Positions 40,085 to 63,564 of a DNA stretch of 64,000 nt are shown one piece after another. Below the pieces are notes generated by a model, which had not been told where the DNA came from, made no database searches, and saw only the letters and a program-made list of their open reading frames with translations. The translations under genes and the position numbers were made by a program. Origin of the DNA: an uncultured Alphaproteobacteria bacterium (GTDB lineage: Bacteria > Pseudomonadota > Alphaproteobacteria > HIMB59 > GCA-002718135); the NCBI GenBank assembly GCA_902521315.1, contig CABYRH010000008.1, forward strand, positions 18,066 to 82,065, written 5' to 3'. Within the stretch, counting starts at the first letter, position 1. Each line of letters starts with the position of its first letter.

Positions 40085-40093
40085 GGAGTAATT

Positions 40094-41468: not shown

Positions 41469-41560
41469 GGATCTTAGTAATTAATTTCCATAGCTAAGCA
41501 TGAAAAGTAACGCATGACTCAATGTGAGCCATGTACTGTGAAATTTATAATGGAGGATTA

Positions 41561-45747: not shown

Positions 45748-47805
45748 ATGGACAAGGTAATAAAAGTTATAAATCTGTTAAAAATAGTAATAATACTTGC
45801 TATTGGGCTATTTAGCACAGCTGGATATACCTTATCTTCAGATTGGGCAATTAGTGAAAAATCAAAAGTTAGATTGATTTCACCAATGACCGCATCAAAT
45901 AATAATAACCAATTAATTTTAGCATTAGAATATGAACTAGAAGAGGAATGGAAAACATATTGGAAATCACCTGGAGGAGGAGGTTTTCCTCAAAAAATTA
46001 TATGGAATAATTCCTCCAATGTGAAAGATATTAAAATATTATGGCCAGAGCCAATAGAATTTGAAATACTAGGTTTAAAATCAATTGGATATAAAGATAA
46101 AGTAATCTTTCCTTTAATTGTAGATATTGAAGATAATAAAAAACAAACAAATTTAAATTTAAATATAAATTATTTAGTTTGTAGAGATATTTGTATTCCA
46201 GGTAATGCAGATATATATTTAAACTTACCATCTGGAGATGGAGCGTACACAGATTATTTTTTCGAAATTGAAAAAGTGTTATCTACTACCTTAAACAATA
46301 ATATTGATTTTACACCTATTTCTAATTTTTCATTTAAAGCTATTGAAAATAGTAATAACGTTATTTTTGATATAGAAATATCAACAAATTCTTTTTTTGA
46401 TAATCCAAAAATTTTTATTCACACACCATTTGGACTACCTGTTGTAGAACAAATAAATAATTATTCCCTTGATTTTCAAAAACTTAACACCTCTTTATAT
46501 TACAGTGCCGATCAATTTAATGAAAAAAAATTTCCAATAGAAATATTTTTTTATGACAATAATCACAGTTTTAAAGTTGAAAAAAAAGTAGAAATTGAAA
46601 ATGTAGATAAAAATATTTCTATAAACAATAGTCTTATATACTTACTCTTAATTTCACTATTAGGCGGATTTATTTTGAATCTTATGCCATGCGTATTTCC
46701 TGTATTATCGTTAAAATTATTATCTGTAATTAATACTGAAGATAAAAAGGTAAAAAGTAGTTTTTTTATAACTGTATTGGGTATTATTACTTCTTTTCTT
46801 TTACTTGGTGTATTTTTTGCCTTGCTGAAACAGATCAATATTTCAATTTCTTGGGGTATGCAATTTCAAGAACCATACTTTTTAATGTTCATTTTAATGA
46901 TTATATCAATGTTCTTCTTGAACACATTAGGCCTTTTTCAAATAAATTTACCGAGTTTTTTACATTCATCTAATATTTTAAATTCAGGAAATAATTTTTA
47001 TACAAAGAATTTTTTTAATGGTTTTTTTGCTACACTACTTGCTACTCCATGTTCTGCACCTTATTTAGGAACAGCTGTCACAGCTGCATTTACTCAATCA
47101 ACAACATATTTATTTTTAATATTCTGTTTTATGGGTATAGGGATGAGCTTACCTTATTTGGTTGTAGCTTTTTTTCCAGGCCTAATTTCCTTTTTACCTA
47201 AATCAGGAAAATGGATGATTTATTTTAAATATTTTCTATCTATTTTATTATTAATAACAATAGTTTGGCTTTTAAGTATATTAAATAATTATTTTAATTA
47301 TTTTTTTATAGTTACATTTACTGTTTTATTAATCTTAATTTCAGCAATTTTAAAATTTAGAATTTACCAAATTCCCTTAATTATTTCTTTAATAATTATT
47401 TTCTTTTTAACACCATATATAAATTCTTTTCAAAAAATTAATGAAGAAAACTATAAAAATAACAATTGGCTAGATTTTAATGCTAAAAATATTCCTGAAA
47501 TAATAGCTAATAATGAAATTGTTTTTTTAGATATAACTGCTGATTGGTGCATTACCTGTAAGTTTAATAAAATCAATGTCTTAAATTCAAAAACAATTTC
47601 AGATTTTTTTGATTCACAAGAAGTGACATTGATAAAAGCTGATTGGACGCAACCAAATGAAAAAATAAATAAATTTTTAAAAAAATATAATAAATTTGGT
47701 ATACCATTTAATGCTTTTTACTCTTCAAAGTTTCCTGAAGGCATAGTAATGAGTGAAATATTGACCGAGAAACAAATATTTGAAACATATAATAAAGTTA
47801 AATAA
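45748..47805 (+). CDS. DsbD-family thiol:disulfide interchange protein
   Basis: KTYWKSPG, LNLMPCVFPV, ATPCSAP, ADWCITC. Confidence 0.92.
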   Translation: MDKVIKVINLLKIVIILAIGLFSTAGYTLSSDWAISEKSKVRLISPMTASNNNNQLILALEYELEEEWKTYWKSPGGGGFPQKIIWNNSSNVKDIKILWPEPIEFEILGLKSIGYKDKVIFPLIVDIEDNKKQTNLNLNINYLVCRDICIPGNADIYLNLPSGDGAYTDYFFEIEKVLSTTLNNNIDFTPISNFSFKAIENSNNVIFDIEISTNSFFDNPKIFIHTPFGLPVVEQINNYSLDFQKLNTSLYYSADQFNEKKFPIEIFFYDNNHSFKVEKKVEIENVDKNISINNSLIYLLLISLLGGFILNLMPCVFPVLSLKLLSVINTEDKKVKSSFFITVLGIITSFLLLGVFFALLKQINISISWGMQFQEPYFLMFILMIISMFFLNTLGLFQINLPSFLHSSNILNSGNNFYTKNFFNGFFATLLATPCSAPYLGTAVTAAFTQSTTYLFLIFCFMGIGMSLPYLVVAFFPGLISFLPKSGKWMIYFKYFLSILLLITIVWLLSILNNYFNYFFIVTFTVLLILISAILKFRIYQIPLIISLIIIFFLTPYINSFQKINEENYKNNNWLDFNAKNIPEIIANNEIVFLDITADWCITCKFNKINVLNSKTISDFFDSQEVTLIKADWTQPNEKINKFLKKYNKFGIPFNAFYSSKFPEGIVMSEILTEKQIFETYNKVK

Positions 47806-48293: not shown

Positions 48294-49271
48294 TTAACTT
48301 TTTCTTCTTTGAATTAAAGCGTAAACTGTTACTGCAACAGTGATCATCAGACCATTAATAAATTTAACATAAAACCCAGACAACCCTAAAGCAACTATTC
48401 CTGACTCTAATGAACCTATGATTAAAACACCTATGAATGTTCCAAAAATAGTACCTCTACCACCAAAAACTGAAGTTCCTCCAACAAAGACAGCTGCTAA
48501 TGTTGTTAACATTAACCCCTCACCTTGTGTAGGCCAGAAATATAACATTTCATACATTGTAAAAATTCCTGCTAAAGCGGAGAAAAATCCTAATTGAACA
48601 AAAGCAATAATTTTTACATTGTCGACATTAATTCCCATCATTTGAGCGCTTGCTTTGTTATCACCTACAAAGTGGATATGATTTCCAAATTTATGGTATC
48701 TATAAACCCATTGCATCAATCCAGTTAATACAATGAACCAAATAAATTGCATTGGAATTTTTCCAAATAATTTTTCAACAAATATCATATGATGCCAGGT
48801 GCCATCTGCTACATCGACAATTGCTATACCACTACCTTGGGAAATTACATTAACTAATCCACGCCAAAAAAATAATGTACCTATAGTAGCAACTATTGAA
48901 GGTATACCAATTTTTGTAACAAGTAATCCATTTACTAATCCAGCAAACATTCCAAGTGAAGTTGCCAAAATAAATGCTATAAAGAAGTTACCATCGGTCG
49001 ATGTCATTATAATTCCAAATATGAGAGATGTAATTCCAACTATAGATGGAAATGATAAATCAATTTCACCTAGTGTAACAACAAATGTTGCTGATATAGC
49101 AATAATTCCAAAAAAAGGCATTGATTGCATAAATGCTCTATAAATAGGGAATCTTGTAAACACATGTGGCGCGCCCAGAAAATAAATTAAGAAAAGTACT
49201 ACGGCAATTATTGTAATACTAATTTCAAGTTTGTGAGTTTTAACAAAATAACTATTTAATAAATTATTCAT
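48294..49271 (-). CDS. Monosaccharide/polyol ABC (CUT2) permease
   Basis: GEIDLSF, AAVFVGGTS.FGGRG. Confidence 0.92.
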   Translation of the reverse strand: MNNLLNSYFVKTHKLEISITIIAVVLFLIYFLGAPHVFTRFPIYRAFMQSMPFFGIIAISATFVVTLGEIDLSFPSIVGITSLIFGIIMTSTDGNFFIAFILATSLGMFAGLVNGLLVTKIGIPSIVATIGTLFFWRGLVNVISQGSGIAIVDVADGTWHHMIFVEKLFGKIPMQFIWFIVLTGLMQWVYRYHKFGNHIHFVGDNKASAQMMGINVDNVKIIAFVQLGFFSALAGIFTMYEMLYFWPTQGEGLMLTTLAAVFVGGTSVFGGRGTIFGTFIGVLIIGSLESGIVALGLSGFYVKFINGLMITVAVTVYALIQRRKS

Positions 49272-50039
49272 TTAATCTTCCACTTTTATTTTTCCTGATT
49301 CATGAAGTTGAATCATTTTTTGAACAAGTTCTTCTCTTGAAATATCTTCTTTATTAAATTCCCCAACAACCTCACCTCTATCTAAAATAATAAATCTATC
49401 TGCAGCGCCGTAAACGTGTATAATATTATGATCGATAAATATTGCAGATTTGTTTTCATTCTTTAAACCTTTGACAAAATTAAGAACTTTTTCTGTTTCT
49501 TGTATCGATAATCCCATTGTTGGTTCATCTAATACGATTAAATCAGAATTAAAATACAATGATCTACCGAAAGCTACACCTTGTTTTTCACCACCAGACA
49601 GTCCCATTACTTGAGAGTCAACGGTTATAGCTTTTGAAGTAAAGCCTATATAGTCGCGTAAAATTTTTTCTGCTTCTTTTCTTTGTTTTTTTATATCCAA
49701 AAAACCAAATGAGTTTGTAATTTCTCTTCCTGCAAAGATATTTCTGTATAATTCTTGCTGATCACATAATGCTCTTTCTTGATATACTGCTTCAATCCCC
49801 ATTTTTCTTGATTGAGCAACTGATTTAATTTGTACTTCTTTTTCTTTAAAAAAAACTTTTCCCGAGTTTGGACTATGAACTCCAGTTATAACTTTAATAA
49901 GTGTAGATTTTCCAGCTCCGTTATCACCGATTAAAGCTACTACTTCACCTTTGTTTATTTTGATATTCACATCTTTTAAAACTTTGACGTTTCCAAAGTT
50001 TTTGTAAATATTTTGTAATTTTAAGAGTTCTTCAGCCAT
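49272..50039 (-). CDS. Monosaccharide ABC ATPase (single NBD)
   Basis: GDNGAGKST, LSGGEKQ, LDEPT. Confidence 0.93.
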   Translation of the reverse strand: MAEELLKLQNIYKNFGNVKVLKDVNIKINKGEVVALIGDNGAGKSTLIKVITGVHSPNSGKVFFKEKEVQIKSVAQSRKMGIEAVYQERALCDQQELYRNIFAGREITNSFGFLDIKKQRKEAEKILRDYIGFTSKAITVDSQVMGLSGGEKQGVAFGRSLYFNSDLIVLDEPTMGLSIQETEKVLNFVKGLKNENKSAIFIDHNIIHVYGAADRFIILDRGEVVGEFNKEDISREELVQKMIQLHESGKIKVED

Positions 50040-50048
50040 AAAAATAAA

Positions 50049-50071
50049 CCTGCCTTATAAAATAAGGCAGG
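50049..50071 (-). terminator. Intercistronic stem-loop after SBP gene
   Basis: CCTGCCTTAT-AAA-ATAAGGCAGG. Confidence 0.65.
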
Positions 50072-50085
50072 CTATAATATTTAAT

Positions 50086-51066
50086 TTATCTGATTTGTAC
50101 TGCTGCTAATGGAGCAACAGCATCAACGTTATCAGCTGTAACAAATGCAGCACCAGTATCCATTGCTAATCCAGCCATTCCATATTTTGTACTTAGGAAT
50201 AACTGAACAATTGGCATATATCCTTGGATAAATGGTTGTTGATCAATTACAACGTCAATGTATCCAGAATTAATTCCGTCAACAATTGGAGCTGATAAAT
50301 CAAATCCAGCACCACATACTTCTTCAGTACCATGACCTGCAGCCTTCATATATGTTGGTAAACTTGCAGTTAATCCACCATGATCTGTAATAGCCATTTT
50401 GATATCAGGATTTGCACTATAAGTAGCAACGTACATAGGAGTTCCTTGAGATGCATCTGAGTTTACATTATCAGGAATTTCTTGATAAACTACTTCAACA
50501 CCTGCTGCTTCAACACCAGCTATTGCGCCTTTAGTTCTTTCTCCTCTGTTTGGCATACTTGCAAGACCCCAGATAAAAGCTTTATCTCCAGCTTGTAGAC
50601 CACAAACTTCAACAGCTTTTTTACCTAGATTAAATCCAGCATCGAATAGATCTGCACCTGCATAACCAAATCCTTCAGTTTTATATTCTGCTTCAAGATC
50701 AGGAAGAGGTGTATTCATAGTAGTAATTACTATACCCATTTCTCTAGCTTCTTGAATGATAGGTCTCATAGCAGCGTCTCCTGGAAAACCATAGATTGCA
50801 ATTCCATCAGGCTGTAAAGCAACTGCTTCTTTAAATTGTTTAATCATGATTTCTGAATTCCACTGTGACCAGTAGTAATCTACTTCACAACCAGTGTGTT
50901 CAGCAGCAGCTACTGCACCATTGTAAACGATAGTTCCAAATGGGCCACCTTCAGGACCACCTGGGAAAAATATAAATTTCTTATCACAGCTGTAATCATT
51001 TTTTGCTACTGCTGAAGTAGATGCAAAAGCAAAAAATAAAGCAATGACAGCAAAGATTTTTTTCAT
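50086..51066 (-). CDS. Monosaccharide/polyol ABC substrate-binding protein
   Basis: Signal peptide, PDGIAI, GFD, IDQQPFIQGY; GGAGG RBS. Confidence 0.9.
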   Translation of the reverse strand: MKKIFAVIALFFAFASTSAVAKNDYSCDKKFIFFPGGPEGGPFGTIVYNGAVAAAEHTGCEVDYYWSQWNSEIMIKQFKEAVALQPDGIAIYGFPGDAAMRPIIQEAREMGIVITTMNTPLPDLEAEYKTEGFGYAGADLFDAGFNLGKKAVEVCGLQAGDKAFIWGLASMPNRGERTKGAIAGVEAAGVEVVYQEIPDNVNSDASQGTPMYVATYSANPDIKMAITDHGGLTASLPTYMKAAGHGTEEVCGAGFDLSAPIVDGINSGYIDVVIDQQPFIQGYMPIVQLFLSTKYGMAGLAMDTGAAFVTADNVDAVAPLAAVQIR

Positions 51067-51256
51067 AATTCCTCCAAATAATTTATGTATTAATTTATAA
51101 GTAAATAAATCAATAATACAATTAAATTAAAGTATTAAAGATCTTATTACAAATTAAATCCCTCTTTCTTTTGATAGATAAAATAGTCGCACTTATTTAC
51201 CAATTTAAACCAATTTTTATATTTATAAGATTATCAAAAAGTGCTATTTTTTCATT

Positions 51257-52243
51257 ATGGATGTTGATTTAGGTAAATGGTATCGAGCAAATATAGATAA
51301 AAAAGAATTCAAGCAGTTATGCAAAAAATCTGATTGGCAGGGTTTTAAGCATATGATTATTTATTTTTCATCTCTGTTTCTCTTTGGATATCTTGCGTAT
51401 GTCACTTGGGGCACTTGGTGGTCATTATTATTTTTTATAATATACGGAAATATTTGGGGATGCAGCGATGCTATCTGGCATGAAACTGGTCACAGAACTG
51501 CTTTTAAATCTAAATTCTGGAATGATTTCTTTTATTATATTGCTAGCTTCATGGATAATTTTGAACCTATCAGATGGAGATATTCTCACTATCATCATCA
51601 TACTTATACTCAATTTAATGATCCTGTAGATTTTGAAATACATGTAAAAAAACCAACTGACTTGATTGTGTTTTTCTCTCATTACATTCCGTTCTCTGGT
51701 TTTATTTTCTTTAAAAATTCTCTTCAATGGGAAACTATAAAACATGCATTTGGCGTAACTACTGATGTAATGAAAGTTTGTATTCCAAAAAATGAAAGAT
51801 GGAAATGTAGATTATCTGCGTGGAGTCATCTTTCTATTTGGATAATTAGTATAGCTTCTTCAGTTTACTTTCAAAGTTGGCTTCCAGTTCTATATGTTTT
51901 ATTACCTAATTTTTATGGAAAGACCCTTGTTATGCTTATGGGTCTTACTCAACACGCAGGACTTAGAGAAGATAAAAGAGACCACAGGTATACAACTAGA
52001 ACAGTATATTTAAATCCAGTTTTAAGTTTTTTATATTGGCATATGGAATATCATGTTGAGCACCATATGTTCCCTCAAGTTCCCTCACATAATTTACCTA
52101 AGCTGCATGCTATGATTAAAGATCAATTACCACCTGCCAGAAAAGGTCTTCTTGGGGCTTATAAAGAAATTATTCCAGCACTCATAAAACAAGCAAAAAA
52201 TCCTGACTATCAAATTCCATTATCTGTTCCAAGCAACGCTTAG
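51257..52243 (+). CDS. Membrane di-iron fatty-acid-desaturase-family enzyme (MocD-like) 1
   Basis: His boxes HETGH, HYHHH, HVEHH; TQHAGL; next to ferredoxin and reductase. Confidence 0.85.
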   Translation: MDVDLGKWYRANIDKKEFKQLCKKSDWQGFKHMIIYFSSLFLFGYLAYVTWGTWWSLLFFIIYGNIWGCSDAIWHETGHRTAFKSKFWNDFFYYIASFMDNFEPIRWRYSHYHHHTYTQFNDPVDFEIHVKKPTDLIVFFSHYIPFSGFIFFKNSLQWETIKHAFGVTTDVMKVCIPKNERWKCRLSAWSHLSIWIISIASSVYFQSWLPVLYVLLPNFYGKTLVMLMGLTQHAGLREDKRDHRYTTRTVYLNPVLSFLYWHMEYHVEHHMFPQVPSHNLPKLHAMIKDQLPPARKGLLGAYKEIIPALIKQAKNPDYQIPLSVPSNA

Positions 52244-52248
52244 ATTGA

Positions 52249-53478
52249 GTGAAAAATAACATTATAATTTTAGGTGGTGGTCAAGCCGGAATCTATGCTG
52301 CTAGAGAGATCAGACAAAATGATTCAAAATCAAATATTAAAATTTTAGGTGAAGAAAATTTATTACCATACGAAAGACCTCCTTTATCTAAAGATTTTTT
52401 GTTAGATAAAAAAAAAGCAGAAGATCTTTACTTTCATTCTAGCGACGTACTAAAAAATGAAAATATAGAATTTGAAAATATATCAATTAATAAAGTTGAT
52501 TTTGAAAATAAAAAACTTTTTGCAAAAAATGATAATGTTTACTCTTATGATAGTTTGCTTATTTCAACAGGTTCTGAAAATAAAAAACTTACTTTAGATA
52601 ATAATTTAAAGAATGATATTTATTATCTAAGAAATTTAGAAGAAGCCAAAAAAATTAAAGAAATAGTTTCAAATAAAAATAAAATAACAATTATTGGTGG
52701 TGGTTTCATTGGCTTAGAAATTGCCTCATCTTTATCTCAGCTTCAAAAGAAAGTAGTTGTTATTGAAATTGGTAATCAACTTATGGGAAGAATTATACCC
52801 AAACAAATTGCTGATTTAGTTCAAAACACTCATATAGAACATGGAAATGAAATAATATTAAATAAACAGATAGAAAAAATAAGTAAAAAAAATGACGATT
52901 ATGAAATTTTATTAAATGATAATTCTTTAATAGAAACAGATTTTATAATTGCAGGTATAGGCTCAACCCCGACTGTAAAGTTATTTGAAAATACAAATTT
53001 AAAGCTTGATAATGGTATTGTAACTAATCAATTTTGTGAAACTTCTATTAAAGATGTTTATGCCGCAGGTGACGTATCTAATTTTTATCATCCATTCTAT
53101 GAAAGAAATATGCGACTCGAGTCTTATCAACATGCACAAAATCATGGAATATGTGCTGGAAAAAATATTGCTGGAGTAAAAACAGAATACTCTTCAATTC
53201 CTTGGATGTGGTCTGATCAATTTAATTTGAATCTTCAACTGACTGGTATTTGTGATGAGTATGATGAAATCATCGAAAGAGGTAATGATATTAATAATGG
53301 TGTTATTTATTTTTTCCTAAAAAATAATAAAATAAGAGGAGCATGTGGTGTTGGAGTCATAGGAAAAGTAGGCCGTGACATTAGAATAACTTCTAAATTA
53401 ACTGAGAAAGATGCCATTGTAGATAAACAAATTCTCTCAGATCAAAATCTAAAATTAAATAAACTTATACAAAAATAA
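52249..53478 (+). CDS. Ferredoxin reductase (MocF-like)
   Basis: GGGQAG, PYERPPLSK, GGGFIGLE, AAGD, PWMWSDQ. Confidence 0.92.
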   Translation: MKNNIIILGGGQAGIYAAREIRQNDSKSNIKILGEENLLPYERPPLSKDFLLDKKKAEDLYFHSSDVLKNENIEFENISINKVDFENKKLFAKNDNVYSYDSLLISTGSENKKLTLDNNLKNDIYYLRNLEEAKKIKEIVSNKNKITIIGGGFIGLEIASSLSQLQKKVVVIEIGNQLMGRIIPKQIADLVQNTHIEHGNEIILNKQIEKISKKNDDYEILLNDNSLIETDFIIAGIGSTPTVKLFENTNLKLDNGIVTNQFCETSIKDVYAAGDVSNFYHPFYERNMRLESYQHAQNHGICAGKNIAGVKTEYSSIPWMWSDQFNLNLQLTGICDEYDEIIERGNDINNGVIYFFLKNNKIRGACGVGVIGKVGRDIRITSKLTEKDAIVDKQILSDQNLKLNKLIQK

Positions 53479-53530
53479 CAATTTAATTATTTTGTATTTA
53501 TTTTCATAAAATAGCTATTATATACAATCT

Positions 53531-53848
53531 ATGTCTGAAGAAAATTGGATTGAAGTAGGATCTACAGATAGTATTGAAGAAGAGGATCTCATCAGATTTG
53601 ATCATCAAGATAAAACTTTTTGTGTATATAAGCTAACAGATGGTTTTTATGCTACTGATGGAATTTGTACACACGAGGCAGTACATCTTGAAGATGGTTT
53701 AGTTATGGATGATGAAATTGAATGTCCAATGCACCAGGGAATTTTTAATATTAAATCCGGAGAAGCTTTAAGCCCACCAGCTTGTGAGGATTTAAAAACA
53801 TATCCAGTTAAAGTTGATAATGACAAAATTTTCATTAAGATAGATTAA
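53531..53848 (+). CDS. Rieske-type ferredoxin (MocE-like)
   Basis: CTH...CPMH Rieske motif, 105 aa. Confidence 0.92.
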   Translation: MSEENWIEVGSTDSIEEEDLIRFDHQDKTFCVYKLTDGFYATDGICTHEAVHLEDGLVMDDEIECPMHQGIFNIKSGEALSPPACEDLKTYPVKVDNDKIFIKID

Positions 53849-53867
53849 ATATTTTTTTGGAGATTTT

Positions 53868-54695
53868 ATGAGTAGAAAAAAACTTACAGTGTACGATTAT
53901 TTGCAATGCAAAGGTAAAAGGCAATTAAGTGTTATGTTTGTACATAATGCTGATGAAGCTGCAGCAGCTGAAGAGGCAGGCATTGACATGATTTGTACTT
54001 CTCATGATGCTCCACAATTTGGTATTTATAATTCTTTTGATGAACTTAAAAGAATTCGTGAGGCTGCGCCAACTTGCTTTATGCAATCTGGAGGTGCAGT
54101 TAGAGTAGCTTCTGAATATGAAGCAATGAAACTATCACATAAGTATTTAGATATTGGAGCAGATGTAATCTATGGCGGTAATTGGAGTTATAAATGGATT
54201 AGAGCATTAAGAGATGAGTATGTTCCAATTAATAGTCACGTTGGATTAGTTCCAGGAAATGCTACTTGGATTGGCGGATTTGTTGCACAAGGTAAAACTG
54301 CTGATAAGGCTATCAGAATTTTAGAACATACGCTTGAGTTACAAGATGCGGGAGCTATCGGAGTTGAGCTTGAAGTAGTTCCTCCAAAAGTTGCAGAAGT
54401 TATTACCAAAAAAGTTGATATCATGACTCTCTCAATGGGAAGTGGTTCTGGATGTGATGGGCAGTATTTATTTGCCAATGATGTATTAGGCTATACCCAA
54501 GGAAAAATTCCAAGACATGCGAGAATTTATAGAGATTTTAAAAAAGAATTTGCAAAATTACAAGCTGAAAGAGTTAGCGCCTTTAAAGAGTTTCACGATG
54601 ACACAGTAAACAAAAAATTTAATGATCCTAAAATCACAGTTAATATCGACGAAGGTGAATTTGAAAAATTTCTAAAACTTTCAGAAAAATTTTGA
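53868..54695 (+). CDS. PanB-like (ketopantoate hydroxymethyltransferase fold) protein, divergent
   Basis: HVGLVP, LQDAGA..ELEVVP, GSGSGCDGQYLF..DVLG; lacks LVGDS motif. Confidence 0.75.
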   Translation: MSRKKLTVYDYLQCKGKRQLSVMFVHNADEAAAAEEAGIDMICTSHDAPQFGIYNSFDELKRIREAAPTCFMQSGGAVRVASEYEAMKLSHKYLDIGADVIYGGNWSYKWIRALRDEYVPINSHVGLVPGNATWIGGFVAQGKTADKAIRILEHTLELQDAGAIGVELEVVPPKVAEVITKKVDIMTLSMGSGSGCDGQYLFANDVLGYTQGKIPRHARIYRDFKKEFAKLQAERVSAFKEFHDDTVNKKFNDPKITVNIDEGEFEKFLKLSEKF

Positions 54696-54698
54696 TTA

Positions 54699-55715
54699 AT
54701 GTTCGCAGGAGAAGTTGATTTAAAAAATTGGTATAAACCAAATATAGATAAGAAAACTTTAAAAGAACTATCTAAGAGATCAGATTTAAAAGGTACAATA
54801 GATATAACCTTATTTATTGTTGCTTTAATATTAAGCGGGTATCTATGTATTATAAGTTGGGCTACTCTATGGTCAATCCCTGCTCTTCTACTTTATGGAA
54901 ATATTTTTTATTGTAAAATCATTAGTATTCAACATGAAACAAATCACGAAACATATTTTAAAAGAAGATCGTTAAATAAATTTTTTTATCATATAACTTC
55001 TTTGCTTGGGGGGTTTGAAGCAGTAAGATGGAAGTGGAGTCATTTTCATCATCACACTTACACAATATTTACACATGAAGAAGTCTATGATTACGAAAAT
55101 AATAGTCCAAAACCAACAGAACCTGTTAGATTTCTTTTAAATTTTTTACCACTTGGTCCAATAATTAATATTCAAAAAATAAGACATTTTACACATTTTG
55201 AAATTATTAAACATTCATTTGGGATAATTACTCCTGTTGTAAAAGTTACAGTGCCTGAAAAGGAAATAAAAAAAATTATTAATAGTTCAAGATTATATTT
55301 AAGTTTTTGGTTGCTTGTAATTTTATCTTCAGTTTTGTTTCAATCATGGCTACCTATAATAATGATAATTTTACCTCCATTTTATGGTAATACTATATTA
55401 ATGATTTGTGGCATGACTCAACATGCTGGACTAGCTGATAATATTAAAGATCATAGAAAAAGCACAAGAACTGTTATTATGAATCCTTTTTTTAGTTTTT
55501 TGTATTCAAATATGGAGTATCATATTGAGCATCACATTTTCCCAAAAATCCCATGCCATAATCTAAAAAAATTTCACAAAATAGTTAAAAATCAAATGCC
55601 TGAACCTCATTACGGAATAATTTCTGCTTATAGATCAATAATCCCAGCAATATTTAAGCAATCCAAAGATAAAAATTATTTTATTGATGTGAAGGTTCCA
55701 GATACGACAATTTAG
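54699..55715 (+). CDS. Membrane di-iron desaturase-family enzyme (MocD-like) 2
   Basis: HETNH, HFHHH, HIEHH; paralog of 51257-52243. Confidence 0.85.
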   Translation: MFAGEVDLKNWYKPNIDKKTLKELSKRSDLKGTIDITLFIVALILSGYLCIISWATLWSIPALLLYGNIFYCKIISIQHETNHETYFKRRSLNKFFYHITSLLGGFEAVRWKWSHFHHHTYTIFTHEEVYDYENNSPKPTEPVRFLLNFLPLGPIINIQKIRHFTHFEIIKHSFGIITPVVKVTVPEKEIKKIINSSRLYLSFWLLVILSSVLFQSWLPIIMIILPPFYGNTILMICGMTQHAGLADNIKDHRKSTRTVIMNPFFSFLYSNMEYHIEHHIFPKIPCHNLKKFHKIVKNQMPEPHYGIISAYRSIIPAIFKQSKDKNYFIDVKVPDTTI

Positions 55716-55753
55716 TCTCTTTTTTTTTACTCAAAATATACTATAAACACAAT

Positions 55754-56758
55754 ATGGGTAATCGATTAAATGATAATGATTTCGGTACAAGAGATAAAAG
55801 AGGTCATTGGAAACCTTTTGGCACAATTAGTATTAATCCACCTAAAGATATATTTTTTAATCCAATAAAATTTTTAAAGTATTTTTTTAAATTTCCAGGA
55901 ATTTTTTTTCCATGGACTTTTGTTTTTGCAGCAATAACAGTTGCTACATATCTTTTTTTGACTCCTTCCTTAGAAACAATGAAGAATTTTGAAATAGGAT
56001 GGATATCCTATATATTCTTTAGAAATGCAGTTATTATTTTGCTTTGGACAGGCTTCTTTCATTTAAGACTGAAAACACAAGGAACTTCCTTTAAATATAA
56101 TCCACGACCTTTGGAAAAAAACAACTCAACATTTTTATTTAATGATCAGACTAAAGATAACTTATTCTATACTTTTTGTAGTGCTATTCCATTATGGACA
56201 GCATACGAAGTAATTACATTTTGGGCATTTGCAAATCAAATAATCCCATATGTAAGTTGGGAAGCTTATCCAATATATTGTTGTTTCATGTTCTTTCTTG
56301 TTCCATTTATAAGAGACGCACATTTTTACTTAACTCATAGGTTATTGCACTGGGCACCACTTTATAAAATCGCTCATAAAGTTCACCACCGCAACACGAA
56401 TACTGGTGCTTGGTCAGGTATGTCAATGCATCCAATAGAGCACATACTATATTTTTCAGGTATCTTAGTTCATTGGATTATCCCTTCACATCCTCTTGTT
56501 GCGATGTATCATGTTTTTCATGCTGGATTAGCTCCTACACCTGGACATACAGGATATGAAAAGATGACTTTCAAAAATGGTGTATCAATACCAACGGGTG
56601 ATTATATGCACTATATCCATCACAAATACTTTGAATGTAATTACTCAGGAGGAAATACTAGCTTTTTAGATAAACTAATGGGTACATTTCATGACGGATC
56701 TGAAGAAGCAACAAAAGAAGTAATGGCTCGTATTAAAGATAAAGCTCACTACCTCTAA
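55754..56758 (+). CDS. Sterol desaturase/fatty acid hydroxylase-family di-iron enzyme
   Basis: HFYLTHRLLH, HKVHH, HYIHH..FECNY. Confidence 0.85.
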   Translation: MGNRLNDNDFGTRDKRGHWKPFGTISINPPKDIFFNPIKFLKYFFKFPGIFFPWTFVFAAITVATYLFLTPSLETMKNFEIGWISYIFFRNAVIILLWTGFFHLRLKTQGTSFKYNPRPLEKNNSTFLFNDQTKDNLFYTFCSAIPLWTAYEVITFWAFANQIIPYVSWEAYPIYCCFMFFLVPFIRDAHFYLTHRLLHWAPLYKIAHKVHHRNTNTGAWSGMSMHPIEHILYFSGILVHWIIPSHPLVAMYHVFHAGLAPTPGHTGYEKMTFKNGVSIPTGDYMHYIHHKYFECNYSGGNTSFLDKLMGTFHDGSEEATKEVMARIKDKAHYL

Positions 56759-56802
56759 TCCTATCTTCATAAATTCTAAATTTTATTATATTGATCTAAA
56801 AT

Positions 56803-57678
56803 ATGAGTGAGGTTGAATTATATAAAGATGTAAAAAATAGTTTAGGAGAAGGTATTACTTGGTCTTCAATTGATCAAAGTTTACTTTGGGTAGATATTAA
56901 ACCAAAATCAGTTTTATTCAAAATTAATTTAGACAATGAAAAATTAGAAACTTTTGATTTACCTGAATTTGTTACAGCGACATCAATAATCTCTAAGAAT
57001 GAAATTGCTTTAGTATCAAATTGTGGAGTAAATAAATTTAACTTTCATTCTAAAAAATATGAAAGAATAATTAATGTTGAAGATAAAATTTCATCAAATA
57101 GATCTAATGATGGTGCATCAGATGCTAAAGGCAGGCTTTGGTTTGGGACGATGCAAAATAATATTAACAACGATGGAAGTGGAAAGCCTTTAAATACTAA
57201 ATCTGGAACTTTATATTGTTTATCAGAAAATAAATTAAATATTGTTGAAACAAATCTTGGTATACCTAACACATTTGTTTGGAGTCCTGATAACACAAAA
57301 TTTTATTTTACTGATACAACTGAGGGATCATTACTAGAATACAATTTTAACCTAGCTGAAGGTGTTTTATCAGATAAAAAAAATTTCTTTGATTTTGAAA
57401 GAGGTGCTCCAGATGGATCAACTATTGATAGTGATGGTTTTATTTGGAATTGTCGTTGGGGTGGATCATGTGTTGTGAAAATTGATCCAAAAGGCAGGGT
57501 TGATCAAATTTACCAGCTACCTGTTGAAAACGTAACAAATTGTGTATTTGGAGGAAGTGATCTTAAAACTTTATTTATTACTACTGCTAATAACTTAGGT
57601 AAAAATAAATATGATGGCAGCTTATTTGCATTAAATGTTAATACTCCTGGTATTGAAGATAATAAATTTAAAATTTGA
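56803..57678 (+). CDS. SMP-30/gluconolactonase-family sugar lactonase
   Basis: LGEG..W, RSNDG, PNTFVWSPD, APDG. Confidence 0.9.
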   Translation: MSEVELYKDVKNSLGEGITWSSIDQSLLWVDIKPKSVLFKINLDNEKLETFDLPEFVTATSIISKNEIALVSNCGVNKFNFHSKKYERIINVEDKISSNRSNDGASDAKGRLWFGTMQNNINNDGSGKPLNTKSGTLYCLSENKLNIVETNLGIPNTFVWSPDNTKFYFTDTTEGSLLEYNFNLAEGVLSDKKNFFDFERGAPDGSTIDSDGFIWNCRWGGSCVVKIDPKGRVDQIYQLPVENVTNCVFGGSDLKTLFITTANNLGKNKYDGSLFALNVNTPGIEDNKFKI

Positions 57679-57709
57679 TTTTTTTCTTTAATTAGATAAG
57701 ACTTTTTTT

Positions 57710-59443
57710 ATGAATAAAAAAAATAAATTCAGATCTTCTAATTGGTATAATTCTAAATCACATCGAAGAGATACATTTATTCATAGAGGTTGGATGCGAA
57801 ATCAAGGGCATCCCAATCACTTATTTGATGGACGCCCTGTAATTGGAATTTGCAATACTTGGTCAGAACTAACACCATGTAATGGTCATTTTAGAGAGAT
57901 AGCTGAGTCTGTTAAAAAAGGTGTTTATGAAGCTGGTGGTTTTCCACTAGAATTTCCTGTTTTTTCAGCAAGTGAATCTAATTTAAGACCAACAGCTATG
58001 TTGTTTAGAAATTTGGCAAGTATGGATGTTGAAGAGGCAATAAGGGGCAATCCTATAGACGGAGTCGTACTATTAATGGGTTGTGATAAAACAACACCTT
58101 CATTAATGATGGGTGCAGCAAGTGTTGACCTTCCAACAATAGGAGTTTCAGGCGGTCCAATGCTTAATGGTCATCATCAGGGGGAAACTATTGGTTCTGG
58201 AACAGGAGTTTGGAAACTTGATGCTGATTTAAACGCAGGTGTAATTACAGAAGAAGATTTTATCAATGCAGAAATTTCAATGAGCAGATCAAAAGGTAAT
58301 TGTATGACAATGGGTACAGCATCAACAATGGGTTCAATGGTTGAGGCATTAGGAATGTCCCTTCCTGGAAACGCAGCAATTCCAGCAGTTGATTCAAGAA
58401 GATACGCATTAGCTCACATGTCAGGAAAAAGAATTGTTGAGATGGTTAAAGACAATATAACTATGTCAAAAATTGTAACAAAAAAATCATTTGAAAATGC
58501 AATAAAAGTTAATGGTGCAATAGGTGGTTCAACAAATGCTGTTATTCATCTAGCAGCTATTGCAGGAAGAATGGAAATAGATCTGGATTTAGAAGATTGG
58601 AATAAGTGTGGAGAGGGAATTCCGACACTTGTCAATCTTCAACCCTCTGGAAAATACTTAATGGAAGATTTTTATTATGCTGGTGGAGTTCCTGTTGTAA
58701 TAAAAAGATTACTTGAAAAAAAATTATTAGAAGAAAATGCATTAACTGTAAATGGAAAAAGTATTGGTGAAAATAACAAAGATGCTAAATGTTGGAATAA
58801 TGAAGTTATAAAAGAATTTGACAATCCATTAACAAAAAATGGAGGCATTAAAATTCTTAAAGGAAACATTGCTCCAAATGGTGCAATCATTAAACCATCT
58901 GCTGCATCACCAGAATTAATGAAACATACTGGAAAAGCAGTTGTCTTTGAAAGTGTAGAAGAATTTCATGAAAAAATTGATGATCCAAATTTAGAAGTAG
59001 ATGAAAACTCTATATTAGTCTTGAAAAATTGTGGACCAAAAGGTTATCCTGGTATGGCAGAAGTTGGAAACATGCGTCTTCCACAAAAACTTTTAAAGAA
59101 AGGTGTTAGGGACATGATTAGGATATCTGATGCTAGAATGAGTGGAACAGCATATGGAACAGTAATCCTACATACTGCCCCTGAGGCAGCTGTAAAAGGC
59201 CCGTTAGCAGCGGTTCAAAATGGTGATCTAATAGAAATAGATGTCAATAAAGGTTCTATGAACTTAAATGTTGACGAAGAAACAATTAAAAATCGTTTAA
59301 ATAATTATAATCCAATTTTACCTGAAATATCTGGAGGCTATCAAAAGATGTATATAGATCATGTTATGCAAGCTGATAAAGGCGCAGATCTTGATTTTCT
59401 AATTGGCAAAAGAGGTGCAGAAGTAAAAAGACATAGTCATTAA
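57710..59443 (+). CDS. IlvD/Edd-family sugar-acid dehydratase (L-arabinonate dehydratase-like)
   Basis: ELTPCNGH, GCDKTTP, CMTMGTAST, SDARMSGT, C-terminal RHSH. Confidence 0.88.
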   Translation: MNKKNKFRSSNWYNSKSHRRDTFIHRGWMRNQGHPNHLFDGRPVIGICNTWSELTPCNGHFREIAESVKKGVYEAGGFPLEFPVFSASESNLRPTAMLFRNLASMDVEEAIRGNPIDGVVLLMGCDKTTPSLMMGAASVDLPTIGVSGGPMLNGHHQGETIGSGTGVWKLDADLNAGVITEEDFINAEISMSRSKGNCMTMGTASTMGSMVEALGMSLPGNAAIPAVDSRRYALAHMSGKRIVEMVKDNITMSKIVTKKSFENAIKVNGAIGGSTNAVIHLAAIAGRMEIDLDLEDWNKCGEGIPTLVNLQPSGKYLMEDFYYAGGVPVVIKRLLEKKLLEENALTVNGKSIGENNKDAKCWNNEVIKEFDNPLTKNGGIKILKGNIAPNGAIIKPSAASPELMKHTGKAVVFESVEEFHEKIDDPNLEVDENSILVLKNCGPKGYPGMAEVGNMRLPQKLLKKGVRDMIRISDARMSGTAYGTVILHTAPEAAVKGPLAAVQNGDLIEIDVNKGSMNLNVDEETIKNRLNNYNPILPEISGGYQKMYIDHVMQADKGADLDFLIGKRGAEVKRHSH

Positions 59444-59473: not shown

Positions 59474-60517
59474 ATGAATAGTAATTTTAATCCGTTATCA
59501 CCTGAAGAATTAGTTTCGAGAATAAATAAAATTCCAAGAATTCGTTTAGCACAACTACCAACTGCTCTTGAATATGCTCCTAATATTTCTAAAGAGTTAA
59601 ATATAAATCTCTATATAAAAAGAGATGATTGCACCGCTTTAGCTTTTGGAGGGAACAAAACAAGACATCTAGAATTTATAATGGCTAAAACTTTATCTGG
59701 AGAGTATGATTGTATTGTAACTGGAGCTGCCTCTCAATCAAATTTTTGTCGTCAAGCAGTAGCAGCTGCTAATAAATTAAACTTGGATAGTTATCTAGTT
59801 TTGATGCATGGAGTTAAAGGTAAATTAATGCAAGGTAACTTTTTGTTATATAACATCCTAGGAGCAAATGTTGATGTAGTTGATGGAGAAAATTTAGAGG
59901 ATATTCCAAAACATTTAGACAAAAAATATGACGAACTAATAAAAGAAGGCCGAAAACCTCTATTAATCTACGGTGGTTTTGGAGAAGAAGATACCACTCT
60001 TGCAGGTATTAGTTATGCAAATACTATGGCTGAAATTGATAAACAAATGAAAAATCAAAATTTTATTGCAGATCATTTATTTGTAACAGCAGCCAACATG
60101 ACACAAGCTGGTTGTGAACTTGGTGCAAGAGTACTTAATTGGTCTACTAGAATACAGGGTATATCTCCTGTTTATTGGGATATGAATATTAAAGAGGACA
60201 TTGCCAGAATATGTAATCAGGGAGCAAAAATGCTCGATCTGAATTTAGAGTTTAATTCAAATATGATTAATCACGACAACAATTACGTAGGTGAAAAATA
60301 TGGTGTACCAACAAAAGATGGAATTGCGGCTATGAATCTTTTAGCAAAAAAAGAAGGACTATTTTTAGATCCTGTTTATACCTCTAAAGGATTTGCTGCA
60401 TTAATTGACTATGTAAAAAAAGGGATTATCAAAAAGGGAGAAAACGTAATTTTCATTTTAACTGGAGGCAGTCCTGCAGTTTTTGCATACAATGAAGAAC
60501 TTTCAAAAAAAATTTAA
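59474..60517 (+). CDS. PLP enzyme of D-cysteine desulfhydrase/ACC deaminase family
   Basis: KRDDC...GGNKTR, QSNF, LDPVYTSK, TGG. Confidence 0.85.
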   Translation: MNSNFNPLSPEELVSRINKIPRIRLAQLPTALEYAPNISKELNINLYIKRDDCTALAFGGNKTRHLEFIMAKTLSGEYDCIVTGAASQSNFCRQAVAAANKLNLDSYLVLMHGVKGKLMQGNFLLYNILGANVDVVDGENLEDIPKHLDKKYDELIKEGRKPLLIYGGFGEEDTTLAGISYANTMAEIDKQMKNQNFIADHLFVTAANMTQAGCELGARVLNWSTRIQGISPVYWDMNIKEDIARICNQGAKMLDLNLEFNSNMINHDNNYVGEKYGVPTKDGIAAMNLLAKKEGLFLDPVYTSKGFAALIDYVKKGIIKKGENVIFILTGGSPAVFAYNEELSKKI

Positions 60518-60518
60518 A

Positions 60519-61406
60519 ATGATTAAAGGTATTATACCTATGACATATTGTTTCTTTAATAGAAACAATACAATAGATATTAAATTAATGATCGATCAAA
60601 TATCACTAATAAAACAATTAGGATCTAATGGTATTGCTTGTCTTGGTCTTGCTACAGAAGTTAATAAATTGGAATTTTCAGAAAAAAAAAAAATAATTGA
60701 ACTTGTTTCTGATATTACAAATAATTCTATACCTGTAGTTGTTACTATATCTGGAAAAAATATTAATGAATATAAAAAATTAATAGGTGTAGCACAATAT
60801 AATAATGCTAATTGGATTGTTCTTCAACCTTTATTAAATAAAAAGACTACAGATAAAGATTGTTATGATTTTTTTGATAAGATAATTAATTTTGTAGATA
60901 AAAAAACTTTAGTTGGAATTCAGAATGCTAAAGAATATATTGGCGTTGGTTTAGAGTCACATCAAATATTAAAACTTTATAAAAAATTTTCTAATTTTAG
61001 AGCTATCAAAGGTGAAGCTGCTGCAGTACTAATACAAAATGAGATTACTAGGTATCCTAAAAATTTAGGTGTTTTTAATGGTAGAGGAGGACAGGAAATA
61101 ATTGATAATTTTTTAGCAGGTTGTAAAGGTATAATACCTTCATTAGAGGGTACTGATATATTTATAAAAATCTACAAACTACTAGAACAAAAAAAAATCA
61201 GTGAAGCTAGAAAGGTTTACAAAAAAATACTTCCCTCCATTGTGTTTTCAATGCAATCTATCGATTCTTTAACTTGTTATGGAAAAAGAATATGCGCATA
61301 CAGAATGGGTGTAAAAAAAATTTATGACAGAAGTCCTAGTTTAAGTCCAACTAAATTCGGTACTGATTTAGCAAAACAATTTGCTGATGATCTAGGAAAA
61401 TTTTGA
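60519..61406 (+). CDS. DHDPS/NAL-family lyase (possible 2-keto-3-deoxy sugar-acid dehydratase/aldolase)
   Basis: LGLATE, Schiff-base Lys in AIKGE; start trimmed to ATG 60519. Confidence 0.8.
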   Translation: MIKGIIPMTYCFFNRNNTIDIKLMIDQISLIKQLGSNGIACLGLATEVNKLEFSEKKKIIELVSDITNNSIPVVVTISGKNINEYKKLIGVAQYNNANWIVLQPLLNKKTTDKDCYDFFDKIINFVDKKTLVGIQNAKEYIGVGLESHQILKLYKKFSNFRAIKGEAAAVLIQNEITRYPKNLGVFNGRGGQEIIDNFLAGCKGIIPSLEGTDIFIKIYKLLEQKKISEARKVYKKILPSIVFSMQSIDSLTCYGKRICAYRMGVKKIYDRSPSLSPTKFGTDLAKQFADDLGKF

Positions 61407-62598: not shown

Positions 62599-62600
62599 AA

Positions 62601-63509
62601 TTAAATTCTATAATATTTTTCAGCGTTTGATGAAAATAACATTGTTTTTTCATTTTCGGAATAATCTTTTGTAATTGTTTTAAAAGAGTTCCAATAATTA
62701 TCGAAAGTATTAAAAATTTTATCAACTGGAAAGTTTGATGCAAACATACATCTTTCAATTCCAAATATTTCTATAGTTTTCTCAACAAAAATTTTTGTAC
62801 TATCGATTGTCCAGCTTGGGTTAAACATTCCAAGACCAGAAATTTTTGCCACCATATTTTCACAGTTTGCAATCTTTTTCATATTAGCTTCCCAATATTG
62901 AATGTACTCTTCAGATTGATAGCATGGTTCACCAGTATGATTTAATATAAATAAGATATCAGCATTATTTTTTGCTAAATTAAAAGAGTCATCCATCTGG
63001 TGAGGATAAACTTGGATATCAAATGATAAATTTCTGTTTTTCATATTTTTGAAATTTTCTAACCATTTTGTATTTTTCATATAATCTTCTGGTGCGTGTG
63101 AATATTTTGGTTCATCTGAATTAAATGATAAAATCTGTCTAATACCACGTGTATTATTAAATTCTTGATGTTGATCTAGAATATCAGCTACATTAGATTT
63201 TGAGAAATCTGCAAATGCAACAATAGCATTTGGTAATTTTGCATTATGATTATCCGCAAGTCTTTGTAGCCATTCTGTTTCATTAACAGGACTATCATCA
63301 TCGTGTTCAGCTTGTACATGAACAGATTTAATTAAATTTTGGTTTTTCGCATCATTTAAATAATCATCTAATAAATAACTTTTTCTTATAGCTCCATAAT
63401 CACCAAAAAATGCTTCTCCTTCAGATACCATTAACCATGAATATTTAGTTTTTTCATTCTCTAAATCCCATAGATGGTGATGAGCGTCTACTATTGGAAT
63501 ATTATCCAT
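62601..63509 (-). CDS. Amidohydrolase-2 family sugar lactonase (fucono/rhamnono-lactonase-like)
   Basis: DAHHHLWD, LNHTG, KISG, FASNFPVD; start trimmed to ATG 63509. Confidence 0.82.
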   Translation of the reverse strand: MDNIPIVDAHHHLWDLENEKTKYSWLMVSEGEAFFGDYGAIRKSYLLDDYLNDAKNQNLIKSVHVQAEHDDDSPVNETEWLQRLADNHNAKLPNAIVAFADFSKSNVADILDQHQEFNNTRGIRQILSFNSDEPKYSHAPEDYMKNTKWLENFKNMKNRNLSFDIQVYPHQMDDSFNLAKNNADILFILNHTGEPCYQSEEYIQYWEANMKKIANCENMVAKISGLGMFNPSWTIDSTKIFVEKTIEIFGIERCMFASNFPVDKIFNTFDNYWNSFKTITKDYSENEKTMLFSSNAEKYYRI

Positions 63510-63526
63510 TGTTTCACTTATAAGTC

Positions 63527-63554
63527 TGAAGAGCAATATTTCTATTGCTCTTCA
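63527..63554 (-). terminator. Stem-loop after SBP gene
   Basis: TGAAGAGCAATA-TTTC-TATTGCTCTTCA. Confidence 0.65.
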
Positions 63555-63564
63555 AATCATTAAT

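Follow-up and report, generated by a model that had tools for sequence, protein, structure and literature searches.

The question raised by the locus described here is what a family of membrane di-iron oxygenases, named after lipid-modifying enzymes, does among genes for sugar uptake and sugar-acid catabolism. The locus lies in a stretch of 64,000 nucleotides (contig CABYRH010000008.1, positions 18,066 to 82,065; called the window below, and all coordinates refer to it unless a contig or locus is named) from the genome of an uncultured alphaproteobacterium of the HIMB59 lineage (1.54 Mb, 87% complete as assembled). Here, ten plus-strand genes, from 51257 to about 61406, form an operon that is divergent from a CUT2-type ABC transporter and that encodes, in this order, a first MocD-like oxygenase, a reductase, a Rieske ferredoxin, a PanB-like protein, a second MocD-like oxygenase, an FA_hydroxylase-type oxygenase, a lactonase, an IlvD-type dehydratase, a pyridoxal phosphate (PLP)-dependent enzyme and a DHDPS-like enzyme. 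Our work supports the idea that this is a MocDEF-type three-component membrane monooxygenase system acting on small imported carbohydrates, not on lipids, and most likely on their O-methyl groups; we give this reading a probability of roughly 55%.

Kinship of the oxygenases to rhizobial MocDEF

In its accessible part, a 2026 review (PMC13434037) presents MocDEF, citing Bahar 1998, as the oxygenase system that demethylates 3-O-methyl-scyllo-inosamine, and treats the role of mocDEF-like clusters outside rhizobia as unresolved. MocDEF is part of rhizopine catabolism, and the layout of the moc locus is given in the accessible portions of two further papers (PMC10107442, PMC6668481). Two loci, those of Rhizobium leguminosarum A1 and Phyllobacterium zundukense Tri-48, show this layout (Gfo/Idh/MocA, solute-binding protein (SBP), MocR-type PLP-domain regulator, FA_desaturase-family enzyme, MocE and flavin adenine dinucleotide (FAD) oxidoreductase) and are taken here as true moc loci.

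Several lines of evidence link the oxygenases of the window to this system. First, they share 39-44% identity over the full length with rhizobial MocD homologues, and 39-40%, again over the full length, with MocD of the two true moc loci; a tblastn search against plasmids gave 293 records, mainly from Rhizobium and Sinorhizobium, with identities of up to 44%. Second, the genome has eight genes matching PF00487, of which seven are MocD-like, and in the phylogenetic tree these seven form, with the copies of relatives, one well-supported marine clade that joins rhizobial MocD; the eighth gene is a remote outgroup. Paralog 2 of the operon lies in the same marine clade and is 45% identical to paralog 1, and the nearest named records are single-cell genomes of uncultured marine Alphaproteobacteria. 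Finally, the reductase is of the MocF type and the ferredoxin appears to be of the MocE type. Judged by families, identities and tree, the system is MocDEF-like at the level of kind, as the first-pass annotation of this DNA had suggested.

Oxygenase 1 carries the histidine boxes HETGH, HYHHH and HVEHH, and H75, H79, H111, H114, H115, H233, H266, H269 and H270 are unchanged across 25 aligned sequences. The best folds for its predicted structure (pLDDT 89.3, pTM 0.87) are those of a subunit of the algal Ycf2/Orf2971-FtsHi complex (template modelling (TM) score 0.63-0.64), and further membrane di-iron folds were AlkB (8f6t, 8sbb; TM 0.40-0.48) and SCD1 (about 0.32); when both oxygenase types were compared by sequence with the PDB, nothing matched at E <= 1. 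The membrane character of these proteins rests on family and fold, since the hydropathy scan (window 19, threshold 1.6), with no segment in oxygenase 1 and three in oxygenase 2, is too crude.

The third oxygenase of the operon, which is unrelated to the MocD-like pair, matches PF04116 with residues 181-311 (profile positions 2-132) and has the histidine motifs HFYLTH, HKVHH and HYIHH; a fold search with its model (pLDDT 72) gave no match at E <= 0.001. Its homologues (45-47% identity) adjoin Rieske, reductase and PanB-like genes in Mesorhizobium, Bradyrhizobium and the genome G118 (47%), and the Mesorhizobium and Bradyrhizobium loci also carry a ribokinase-family gene. The homologue in S. meliloti has adjoining Rieske and reductase genes without a PanB-like gene.

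One electron chain for many oxygenases in a carbohydrate setting

Each of the genome's seven MocD-like paralogs has CUT2 transporter genes at a distance of no more than about 5 kb, and their other neighbours are genes for GFO/IDH/MocA, ThuA, PhyH and aldehyde dehydrogenase proteins as well as a second PanB-like gene. Three of the paralogs are located directly upstream of the window on the same contig (L019, C8:1-18100), in a carbohydrate island with a truncated iolD, a 2-hydroxyacid dehydrogenase, three CUT2 transporters, a GFO/IDH/MocA gene, a PhyH dioxygenase and, between two of the paralogs, the second PanB-like gene. The iolD gene, which is cut off at the contig start (705 bits, cut-off 715), is about 6.7 kb away from the nearest paralog. 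Two further paralogs on another contig (L020, C2:183000-202999) flank a LacI regulator, a levoglucosan-dehydrogenase-like GFO/IDH gene (138 bits), ThuA, a CUT2 transporter and an aldehyde dehydrogenase; 11 of the 14 loci that carry this type of paralog share the ThuA/GFO context. Together with the lack of lipid genes in the operon, this proximity to CUT2 genes speaks for a sugar rather than a lipid setting.

The supply of electrons is far less redundant. The operon holds the one strong MocE-type ferredoxin match of the genome (the next scores 36.5 bits), and the congener G248 (96% complete) likewise has one MocE above the cut-off. The reductase gene directly follows that of oxygenase 1 and is the only copy of its type found in the genome. 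With one ferredoxin and one reductase, in an assembly that is 87% complete, for seven MocD-like paralogs and the FA_hydroxylase-type enzyme, the oxygenases must share the chain, also outside the operon; the pair encoded here probably serves the genome's other five MocD-like paralogs too. Thus, the sugar setting and the shared chain, both proposed on first inspection of the sequence, hold up, and two points had been understated: the genome-wide expansion of MocD-like genes and the PanB-like gene as a recurrent partner.

Operon layout, conservation and transporter

The ten genes are tightly packed, with 5, 52, 19, 3, 38, 44, 31, 30 and -35 bases between them (Table 1), and the true start of the DHDPS-family gene is probably downstream of 60517. 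All genes listed in the first-pass annotation were found with the coordinates, order and strands given there; its content stands, but not its end at 59443, since the operon goes on for two more genes, those of the PLP enzyme and the DHDPS-family protein.

Table 1. Genes and intergenic region of the oxygenase cluster, with the profile matches on which the assignments rest.
Feature	Position	Strand	Evidence
CUT2-type ABC permease	48294-49271	-	PF02653 BPD_transp_2, 109.8 bits
ABC ATPase, one ABC domain, 255 amino acids	49272-50039	-	PF00005
CUT2-type periplasmic SBP	50086-51066	-	PF13407 Peripla_BP_4, 106.8 bits
AT-rich divergent intergenic region, transporter/oxygenase operon	51067-51256	.	read directly
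MocD-like membrane di-iron oxygenase, paralog 1	51257-52243	+	PF00487 FA_desaturase, 113.6 bits
MocF-type NAD(P)H:ferredoxin reductase (FAD)	52249-53478	+	Pyr_redox_2 + Reductase_C; HcaD-like, 304 bits
MocE-type Rieske [2Fe-2S] ferredoxin	53531-53848	+	TIGR02377, 136.0 bits
PanB-like protein	53868-54695	+	PF02548, profile positions 91-256 only
MocD-like membrane di-iron oxygenase, paralog 2	54699-55715	+	PF00487, 116.6 bits
FA_hydroxylase/sterol-desaturase-family membrane di-iron oxygenase	55754-56758	+	PF04116, 71.3 bits (cut-off 31)
SMP-30/gluconolactonase-family lactonase	56803-57678	+	PF08450, 236.7 bits
IlvD/Edd-family sugar-acid dehydratase	57710-59443	+	NF004784, 916 bits (cut-off 539)
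Fold-type II PLP enzyme, D-cysteine desulfhydrase/ACC deaminase/CuyA family	59474-60517	+	PF00291
DHDPS/NAL-family enzyme	about 60483-61406	+	PF00701, 59.5 bits

Conservation was followed in the source genome and 24 genomes of the same genus. An orthologue of oxygenase 1 with at least 78% identity is present in 16 of them. Of these 16, 13 also carry oxygenase 2 on the same strand, 3.45-3.55 kb further downstream; one has it on a different contig, and two lack it at the locus. The arrangement is conserved. The composition differs among species: G024 and G004 hold only the PanB-like gene and one oxygenase, plus extra enolase-type genes, and in G006 the PLP and DHDPS genes were not found beside the operon. 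In the reduced variants, too, oxygenase, PanB-like and sugar-acid genes still accompany the same transporter. As for expression, 14 RNA runs from 12 studies share 26-31% of the words that were sampled from a 7-kb stretch. Contigs assembled from RNA libraries (four runs, four different studies) cover 22-30 of the 30 bins of the 14-kb cluster and span the junctions oxygenase 1/reductase, Rieske/PanB-like, PanB-like/oxygenase 2 and lactonase/dehydratase; such contigs may include DNA and cannot prove transcription or a single transcript, and they are only a weak hint of expression. We conclude that the operon is real, conserved and probably expressed.

The CUT2 transporter set is complete, with a Peripla_BP_4 SBP, a BPD_transp_2 permease and an ABC ATPase. 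For the permease, the best NCBIfam matches are monosaccharide permeases, every one far under its cut-off. The ATPase aligns to positions 1-240 of the YtfR/XylG/RbsA models, i. e. to the first half of sugar ATPases of about 500 amino acids. Half-size ATPases of this kind (245-255 amino acids with one ABC domain, the models having about 500 positions) occur in all CUT2-type transporters that adjoin MocD-like genes in the window, L019 and L020. The SBP is 93-94% identical across species of the genus; among the NCBIfam models it matches solely NF052284, that of the rhizopine-catabolism SBP (83 bits vs. a cut-off of 420), and its best relatives among solved structures are distant sugar SBPs (55 bits), uninformative as to the ligand. 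Within the cluster, no regulator gene was found.

A remodelled PanB paralog and a probable link to folate

The PanB-like protein does not pass the panB equivalog model TIGR00222 (101.3 bits vs. 207.55), and it is 20% identical to the canonical PanB that the genome encodes elsewhere (254 bits on PF02548, full length) besides three PanB-like copies. In the tree, canonical PanB is remote, nearly all oxygenase-linked PanB-like copies fall into one 22-row clade (SH-aLRT 96), and four orphan copies form a clade of their own. The PanB-like proteins of 19 loci align over the full length and are 32-80% identical to the operon copy, a range of 31-90% in a larger set of loci. H124, E167, E169, D197, D205, P215-R216-H217, D40 and D99 are invariant or nearly so. 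When the 19 proteins are aligned with canonical PanB, its segments GDS, DMP and K-x-E, which we take to be the metal and keto-acid site, prove not to be conserved. By sequence, the protein is a remodelled PanB paralog and not the real PanB of the genome. A prediction of its complex with oxygenase 1 scored 0.00, which tells neither way.

What such a protein may do is suggested by its company. In the two true moc loci the order is mocD-mocE-mocF-PanB-like-purU, with purU encoding formyl-tetrahydrofolate (formyl-THF) deformylase, and this order links the module to one-carbon (C1) and folate handling; PurU was also found in a third Rhizobiales locus. PanB uses methylene-THF. The genome of the window encodes FolD and formate-THF ligase. 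A YgfZ/CAF17 folate-binding gene beside an orphan PanB-like gene (L048) was considered as a further folate lead and dropped, as it was not found in the other loci compared.

The pairing with oxygenases is seen far from the window. In seven of eight annotated plasmid loci a PanB-like gene directly follows the oxygenase genes, the exception being Burkholderia YI23, and in three sister-family genomes it adjoins their single MocD-like gene. G006 has a second PanB-like copy beside oxygenase 2, and in G194 better gene calling revealed extra adjacent PanB-like/MocD-like pairs. The rhizobial and Marivivens homologues of the oxygenases adjoin LacI regulators, sugar ABC transporters and iolG/C/D. In G248 (L059:8232-14880), PanB-like genes adjoin PhyH dioxygenases: a tandem pair of the former has, divergent from it, two of the latter along with genes for a class IV aminotransferase, a DHDPS-family protein and an M81 peptidase, and the locus also holds a major facilitator superfamily transporter and a BNR-repeat protein. 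Among 401 genomes of the class, 31 have a MocD-like match (E <= 1e-30) and 29 a PanB-like match (E <= 1e-25).

The sugar-acid genes and the surroundings of the operon

Downstream of the oxygenases, steps of non-phosphorylative aldose oxidation of the Weimberg/Dahms type may be represented by the lactonase, the IlvD-type dehydratase and the DHDPS-family gene. The dehydratase scores 839 bits on the L-arabinonate dehydratase model NF009559, whose cut-off is 882, and the DHDPS-family enzyme is by its family a candidate 2-keto-3-deoxy-acid aldolase or dehydratase. The PLP enzyme reaches 278 bits on the CuyA model (cut-off 450), and its best match in the PDB is the D-cysteine desulfhydrase 7ysk (188 bits). 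A sulfoquinovose (sulfo-Entner-Doudoroff) reading of the lactonase, dehydratase and CuyA-like genes was set aside on this CuyA score and on the absence of any other sulfonate gene from what we saw.

On the minus strand, a separate deoxy-sugar-acid module converges on the operon (61411-63999). It comprises an enolase-type, L-rhamnonate-dehydratase-like enzyme, an Amidohydro_2 lactonase that is fuconolactonase-like, and a RhaS-like SBP (255 bits vs. 342), and is divergent from an ABC ATPase. On the other side, beyond the transporter, a gene for a DsbD-like protein of 685 amino acids (45748-47805) lies in a stretch of 23% G+C, with a Redoxin-family gene next to it, and this flank is kept in species of the same genus. 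The G+C content of the window is low throughout, about 23-37% per kb.

Further away, two ammonium transporter genes (41531-42847 and 43599-44885) are about 750 bases apart, and the second scores above the cut-off of the 'marine subtype' model TIGR03644 (534 bits vs. 514). A xylose-isomerase-like TIM barrel gene and a levoglucosan-dehydrogenase-like GFO/IDH/MocA gene (135 bits) at 39032-41245 resemble modules for the oxidative cleavage of glycosides or anhydro-sugars. The window begins (1-8223) with genes for a putative GHL6-family glycosidase, a CUT1 ABC transporter, a PhyH dioxygenase and GFO/IDH/MocA and ThuA proteins, followed by an open reading frame for 437 amino acids (8248-9561) that has no Pfam match at E <= 1e-8.

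What do the oxygenases act on?

By analogy, the locus is best read as one for the O-demethylation of methylated sugars or cyclitols after their import, on account of the genetic model of MocDEF and the PanB-like and purU neighbours in the two true moc loci. The CUT2-type transporter would import a sugar-like or cyclitol-like solute, and electrons from NAD(P)H would pass via the FAD reductase and the Rieske ferredoxin to the three di-iron enzymes, two of the MocD and one of the FA_hydroxylase family. From hydroxylation onward, that is for its target, for the role of the PanB-like protein and for the substrate, we infer the following steps. The di-iron enzymes would hydroxylate the solute, the likeliest target being O-methyl groups, and the hemiacetal thus formed would yield a free hydroxyl group and formaldehyde as C1 unit. 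The PanB-like protein would most likely load this unit on THF, where FolD and formate-THF ligase would oxidise it; such a capture on folate is suggested by the purU neighbours of the moc loci and by the use of methylene-THF by PanB. The demethylated sugar would become a lactone, the substrate of the SMP-30 lactonase, and then an aldonate, from which the IlvD-type dehydratase would form the 2-keto-3-deoxy acid for the DHDPS-like enzyme.

Several observations weigh against this reading. The broadest are the neighbourhoods of relatives in named genomes, for which 76 of at least 591 relatives were kept and neighbours within 8 kb of the oxygenase gene were counted. A PanB-like neighbour is present in 19 of these 76 loci, a Rieske gene in 25, a reductase gene in 18, CUT2 genes in 35, GFO in 19, ThuA in 11 and PurU in one. 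The paralog-1 type has a PanB-like gene in 11 and a Rieske gene in 10 of 12 loci. The PanB-like gene was counted in four of 14 loci of the ThuA/GFO type, in one of five of the PhyH type, in one of 17 of the rhizobial-MocD-like type from metagenome-assembled genomes and isolates (with Rieske in 12), and in none of the 25 of the Pelagibacter type, which also have no CUT2 or MocE neighbour. In Ca. P. ubique HTCC8051 (L102:7155-11027), a MocD-family relative with 51% identity to oxygenase 1 directly follows proteorhodopsin, and then come a plant-type [2Fe-2S] ferredoxin, a pyridine-nucleotide reductase and a glutathione S-transferase. With 25 of the 76 loci belonging to this type, the family is not uniformly sugar-linked. 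In the class, a PanB-like gene lies within 5 kb of a MocD-like gene (at least 35% identity) in six of 17 genomes; in the remaining ones it is on another contig (four), distant (two) or not found (five), and two further adjacencies involve more distant oxygenases. The PanB-like gene is a frequent and lineage-dependent partner of the oxygenases, far above chance and not obligatory; an obligatory pair is ruled out by the 19 of 76 loci. In one genome, G427, a MocD-like gene lies between two XdhC-type genes of a cluster of the xanthine-dehydrogenase/aldehyde-oxidase family (L061:7755-12949); this context was discarded as a general feature, as it was found in only one other locus, L121 (one of the 25 loci of that subgroup).

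Other points on this side concern the locus itself. The score of the Rieske protein falls short of the MocE cut-off of 136.15 by 0.15 bits (its G248 orthologue reaches 137.0 and rhizobial MocE 178 bits), and in the complete sister-family genome G025 the oxygenase/PanB-like pair is present and a MocE-type ferredoxin was not found. The operon has no sugar 1-dehydrogenase for making the lactone, and a purU scoring above the cut-off is missing from the genome. None of the PanB-family copies in three large high-GC genomes passes the panB model, so that PanB (ketopantoate) activity may there be retained by PanB-like proteins. The RNA-library contigs count on this side as well, given the limits stated above. 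Finally, no biochemical assay of any MocD-family enzyme was found in the literature, supplements aside, and the demethylation model of MocDEF is genetic; the description of the pathway as uncharacterised, made in the first-pass annotation, is borne out.

Among the competing explanations, the one that survives best, rather unlikely as we judge it, is that the oxygenases do not attack O-methyl ethers but the C-H bonds of sugars or cyclitols of the C-methyl, deoxy or branched kind, which they would hydroxylate, with the PanB-like protein removing the hydroxymethyl group by a retro-aldol reaction to give methylene-THF or formaldehyde. It would make direct use of PanB chemistry, which makes and breaks a C-CH2OH bond beside a carbonyl group; GFO/IDH/MocA dehydrogenases near several paralogs could supply that carbonyl, and the rhamnose/fucose-type module adjoins the operon. 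A weak NCBIfam match to GntB, an L-arginine gamma-hydroxylase, and the ability of FA_desaturase-family members to hydroxylate unactivated C-H bonds in polar molecules point the same way. However, the PanB-like clade has lost the three PanB segments with their presumed metal and keto-acid role, which speaks against enolate chemistry. Moreover, the one substrate assigned to MocDEF in the accessible part of the review is an O-methyl ether (PMC13434037).

It is improbable that the operon joins two independent modules, the common electron-chain hub of the genome with two or three oxygenases for other solutes and an ordinary pentonate or hexonate pathway (lactonase, dehydratase, PLP enzyme and DHDPS-like enzyme) for an unmethylated sugar that the adjacent transporter imports. 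This would explain why its composition varies by species while the SBP stays 93-94% identical (variants G024, G004 and G006), why the lactonase and the IlvD-type dehydratase occur in only nine and 11 of the 76 loci, and why no dehydrogenase joins the halves; yet the tight spacing on one strand, the reduced variants, which keep parts of both halves behind the same transporter, and the RNA-library contigs, which cross junctions inside both halves, speak against it.

The missing sugar 1-dehydrogenase could also mean that the target of the oxygenases is the anomeric C1-H of a glycoside or anhydro-sugar, whose hydroxylation would directly release an aldonolactone, for the lactonase and the aldonate dehydratase of the operon, and the aglycone. 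Although this chemistry is analogous to that of C1-oxidising polysaccharide monooxygenases, it has no precedent in the family and leaves the PanB-like and purU neighbours unexplained, and the dehydrogenase may be encoded elsewhere in a genome rich in GFO/IDH genes; we hold it to be very unlikely. The least credible explanation is that the three His-box enzymes are ordinary desaturases or hydroxylases remodelling membrane lipids, as their Pfam names, the source annotations 'fatty acid desaturase' and 'sterol desaturase' and the AlkB- and SCD1-like fold might suggest, since there are seven paralogs in a 1.5-Mb genome, each near sugar transporters, with a Rieske partner of the MocE family, with homologues adjoining LacI regulators and inositol genes, in an operon without lipid genes, and since the genome has a separate, remote FA_desaturase gene.

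Relation to known systems and implications

Compared to rhizobial MocDEF, the operon has the same combination of an FA_desaturase-family His-box enzyme, a probable MocE-family Rieske protein and a Reductase_C FAD reductase, the PanB-like gene follows in both, and a CUT2-type SBP is nearby. In contrast to the moc locus, it has no MocR, MocA or MocC, and its SBP is far from the rhizopine model (83 vs. 420 bits): it is not a rhizopine locus. It differs further in having two MocD paralogs and an FA_hydroxylase-type oxygenase where moc has one oxygenase, in being joined to lactonase and dehydratase rather than inositol genes, in the lack of purU, and in that one chain appears to serve seven paralogs. 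With AlkB/AlkG/AlkT and XylMA the system shares the three-component logic and the His-box membrane di-iron fold, an analogy noted for MocDEF in the accessible part of the review (PMC13434037); unlike them, it uses a Rieske ferredoxin instead of rubredoxin, stands in a polar carbohydrate rather than a hydrocarbon context and is only 14-15% identical.

The PanB-like protein shares the fold family of PanB (EC 2.1.2.11; PDB 3ez4, 3vav, 1m3u, 1oy0, 1o66), with which its C-terminal two-thirds align, and it keeps the motifs HVGL, LE.VP and G.G..CDGQ. It departs from PanB in its new invariant E167, D205 and PRH motif and in its location in catabolic operons beside oxygenases. If O-demethylation is right, there is also a counterpart in the three-component oxidative O-demethylation of a marine methylated sugar: a cytochrome P450/ferredoxin/ferredoxin-reductase system of marine Bacteroidetes reportedly demethylates 6-O-methyl-D-galactose of porphyran. 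To our knowledge, this is the only known marine sugar demethylase, and we know of no PanB-like partner for it; it is a soluble heme P450 and not a membrane di-iron enzyme, and comes from a different phylum. In SAR11, methyl groups undergo one-carbon oxidation according to the accessible part of PMC3160333; the proposed pathway would likewise pass a methyl carbon to THF and oxidise it for energy, with FolD and formate-THF ligase present here too, but there GcvT-type folate domains act on methylamines and dimethylsulfoniopropionate, whereas here the carrier would be the PanB-like protein.

In the literature, supplements aside, we found no description of the PanB-like partner. The AEGEAN-169/HIMB59 paper (PMC10308909) makes no mention of desaturase, inositol or rhizopine, the SAR11 'unknome' paper (PMC13712998) none of desaturase, inositol, Rieske, hydroxymethyltransferase or demethyl, and the accessible part of a pinitol paper (PMC9788770) names no bacterial demethylase. 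Compared with this literature, the marine expansion of MocD-like genes, the single shared chain, the FA_hydroxylase-type oxygenase with the same partners and the PanB-like/purU link with its limits are new.

It is tempting to speculate that these genes reflect a harvesting of methyl ethers in SAR11-type cells, with a set of substrate-specific membrane di-iron O-demethylases (the seven MocD-like paralogs and the FA_hydroxylase-type enzyme) that are each coupled to a sugar transporter of their own, one shared ferredoxin/reductase pair and a PanB-derived family of enzymes transferring the hydroxymethyl or formaldehyde unit to THF, a possibility that we regard as tentative. Methylated sugars are known to be among the constituents of marine dissolved organic matter. 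If the idea is true, cells would gain from the methylated sugars and cyclitols of this material not only a usable sugar but also C1 bound to folate, as a source of energy. Confirming the function would give MocD-family enzymes their first measured activity and the PanB-derived family a new function, and it would mend the widespread mis-annotation of these proteins as '3-methyl-2-oxobutanoate hydroxymethyltransferase', 'fatty acid desaturase' and 'sterol desaturase'. Relatives in cultured Pelagibacter strains and in rhizobia make the question directly testable.

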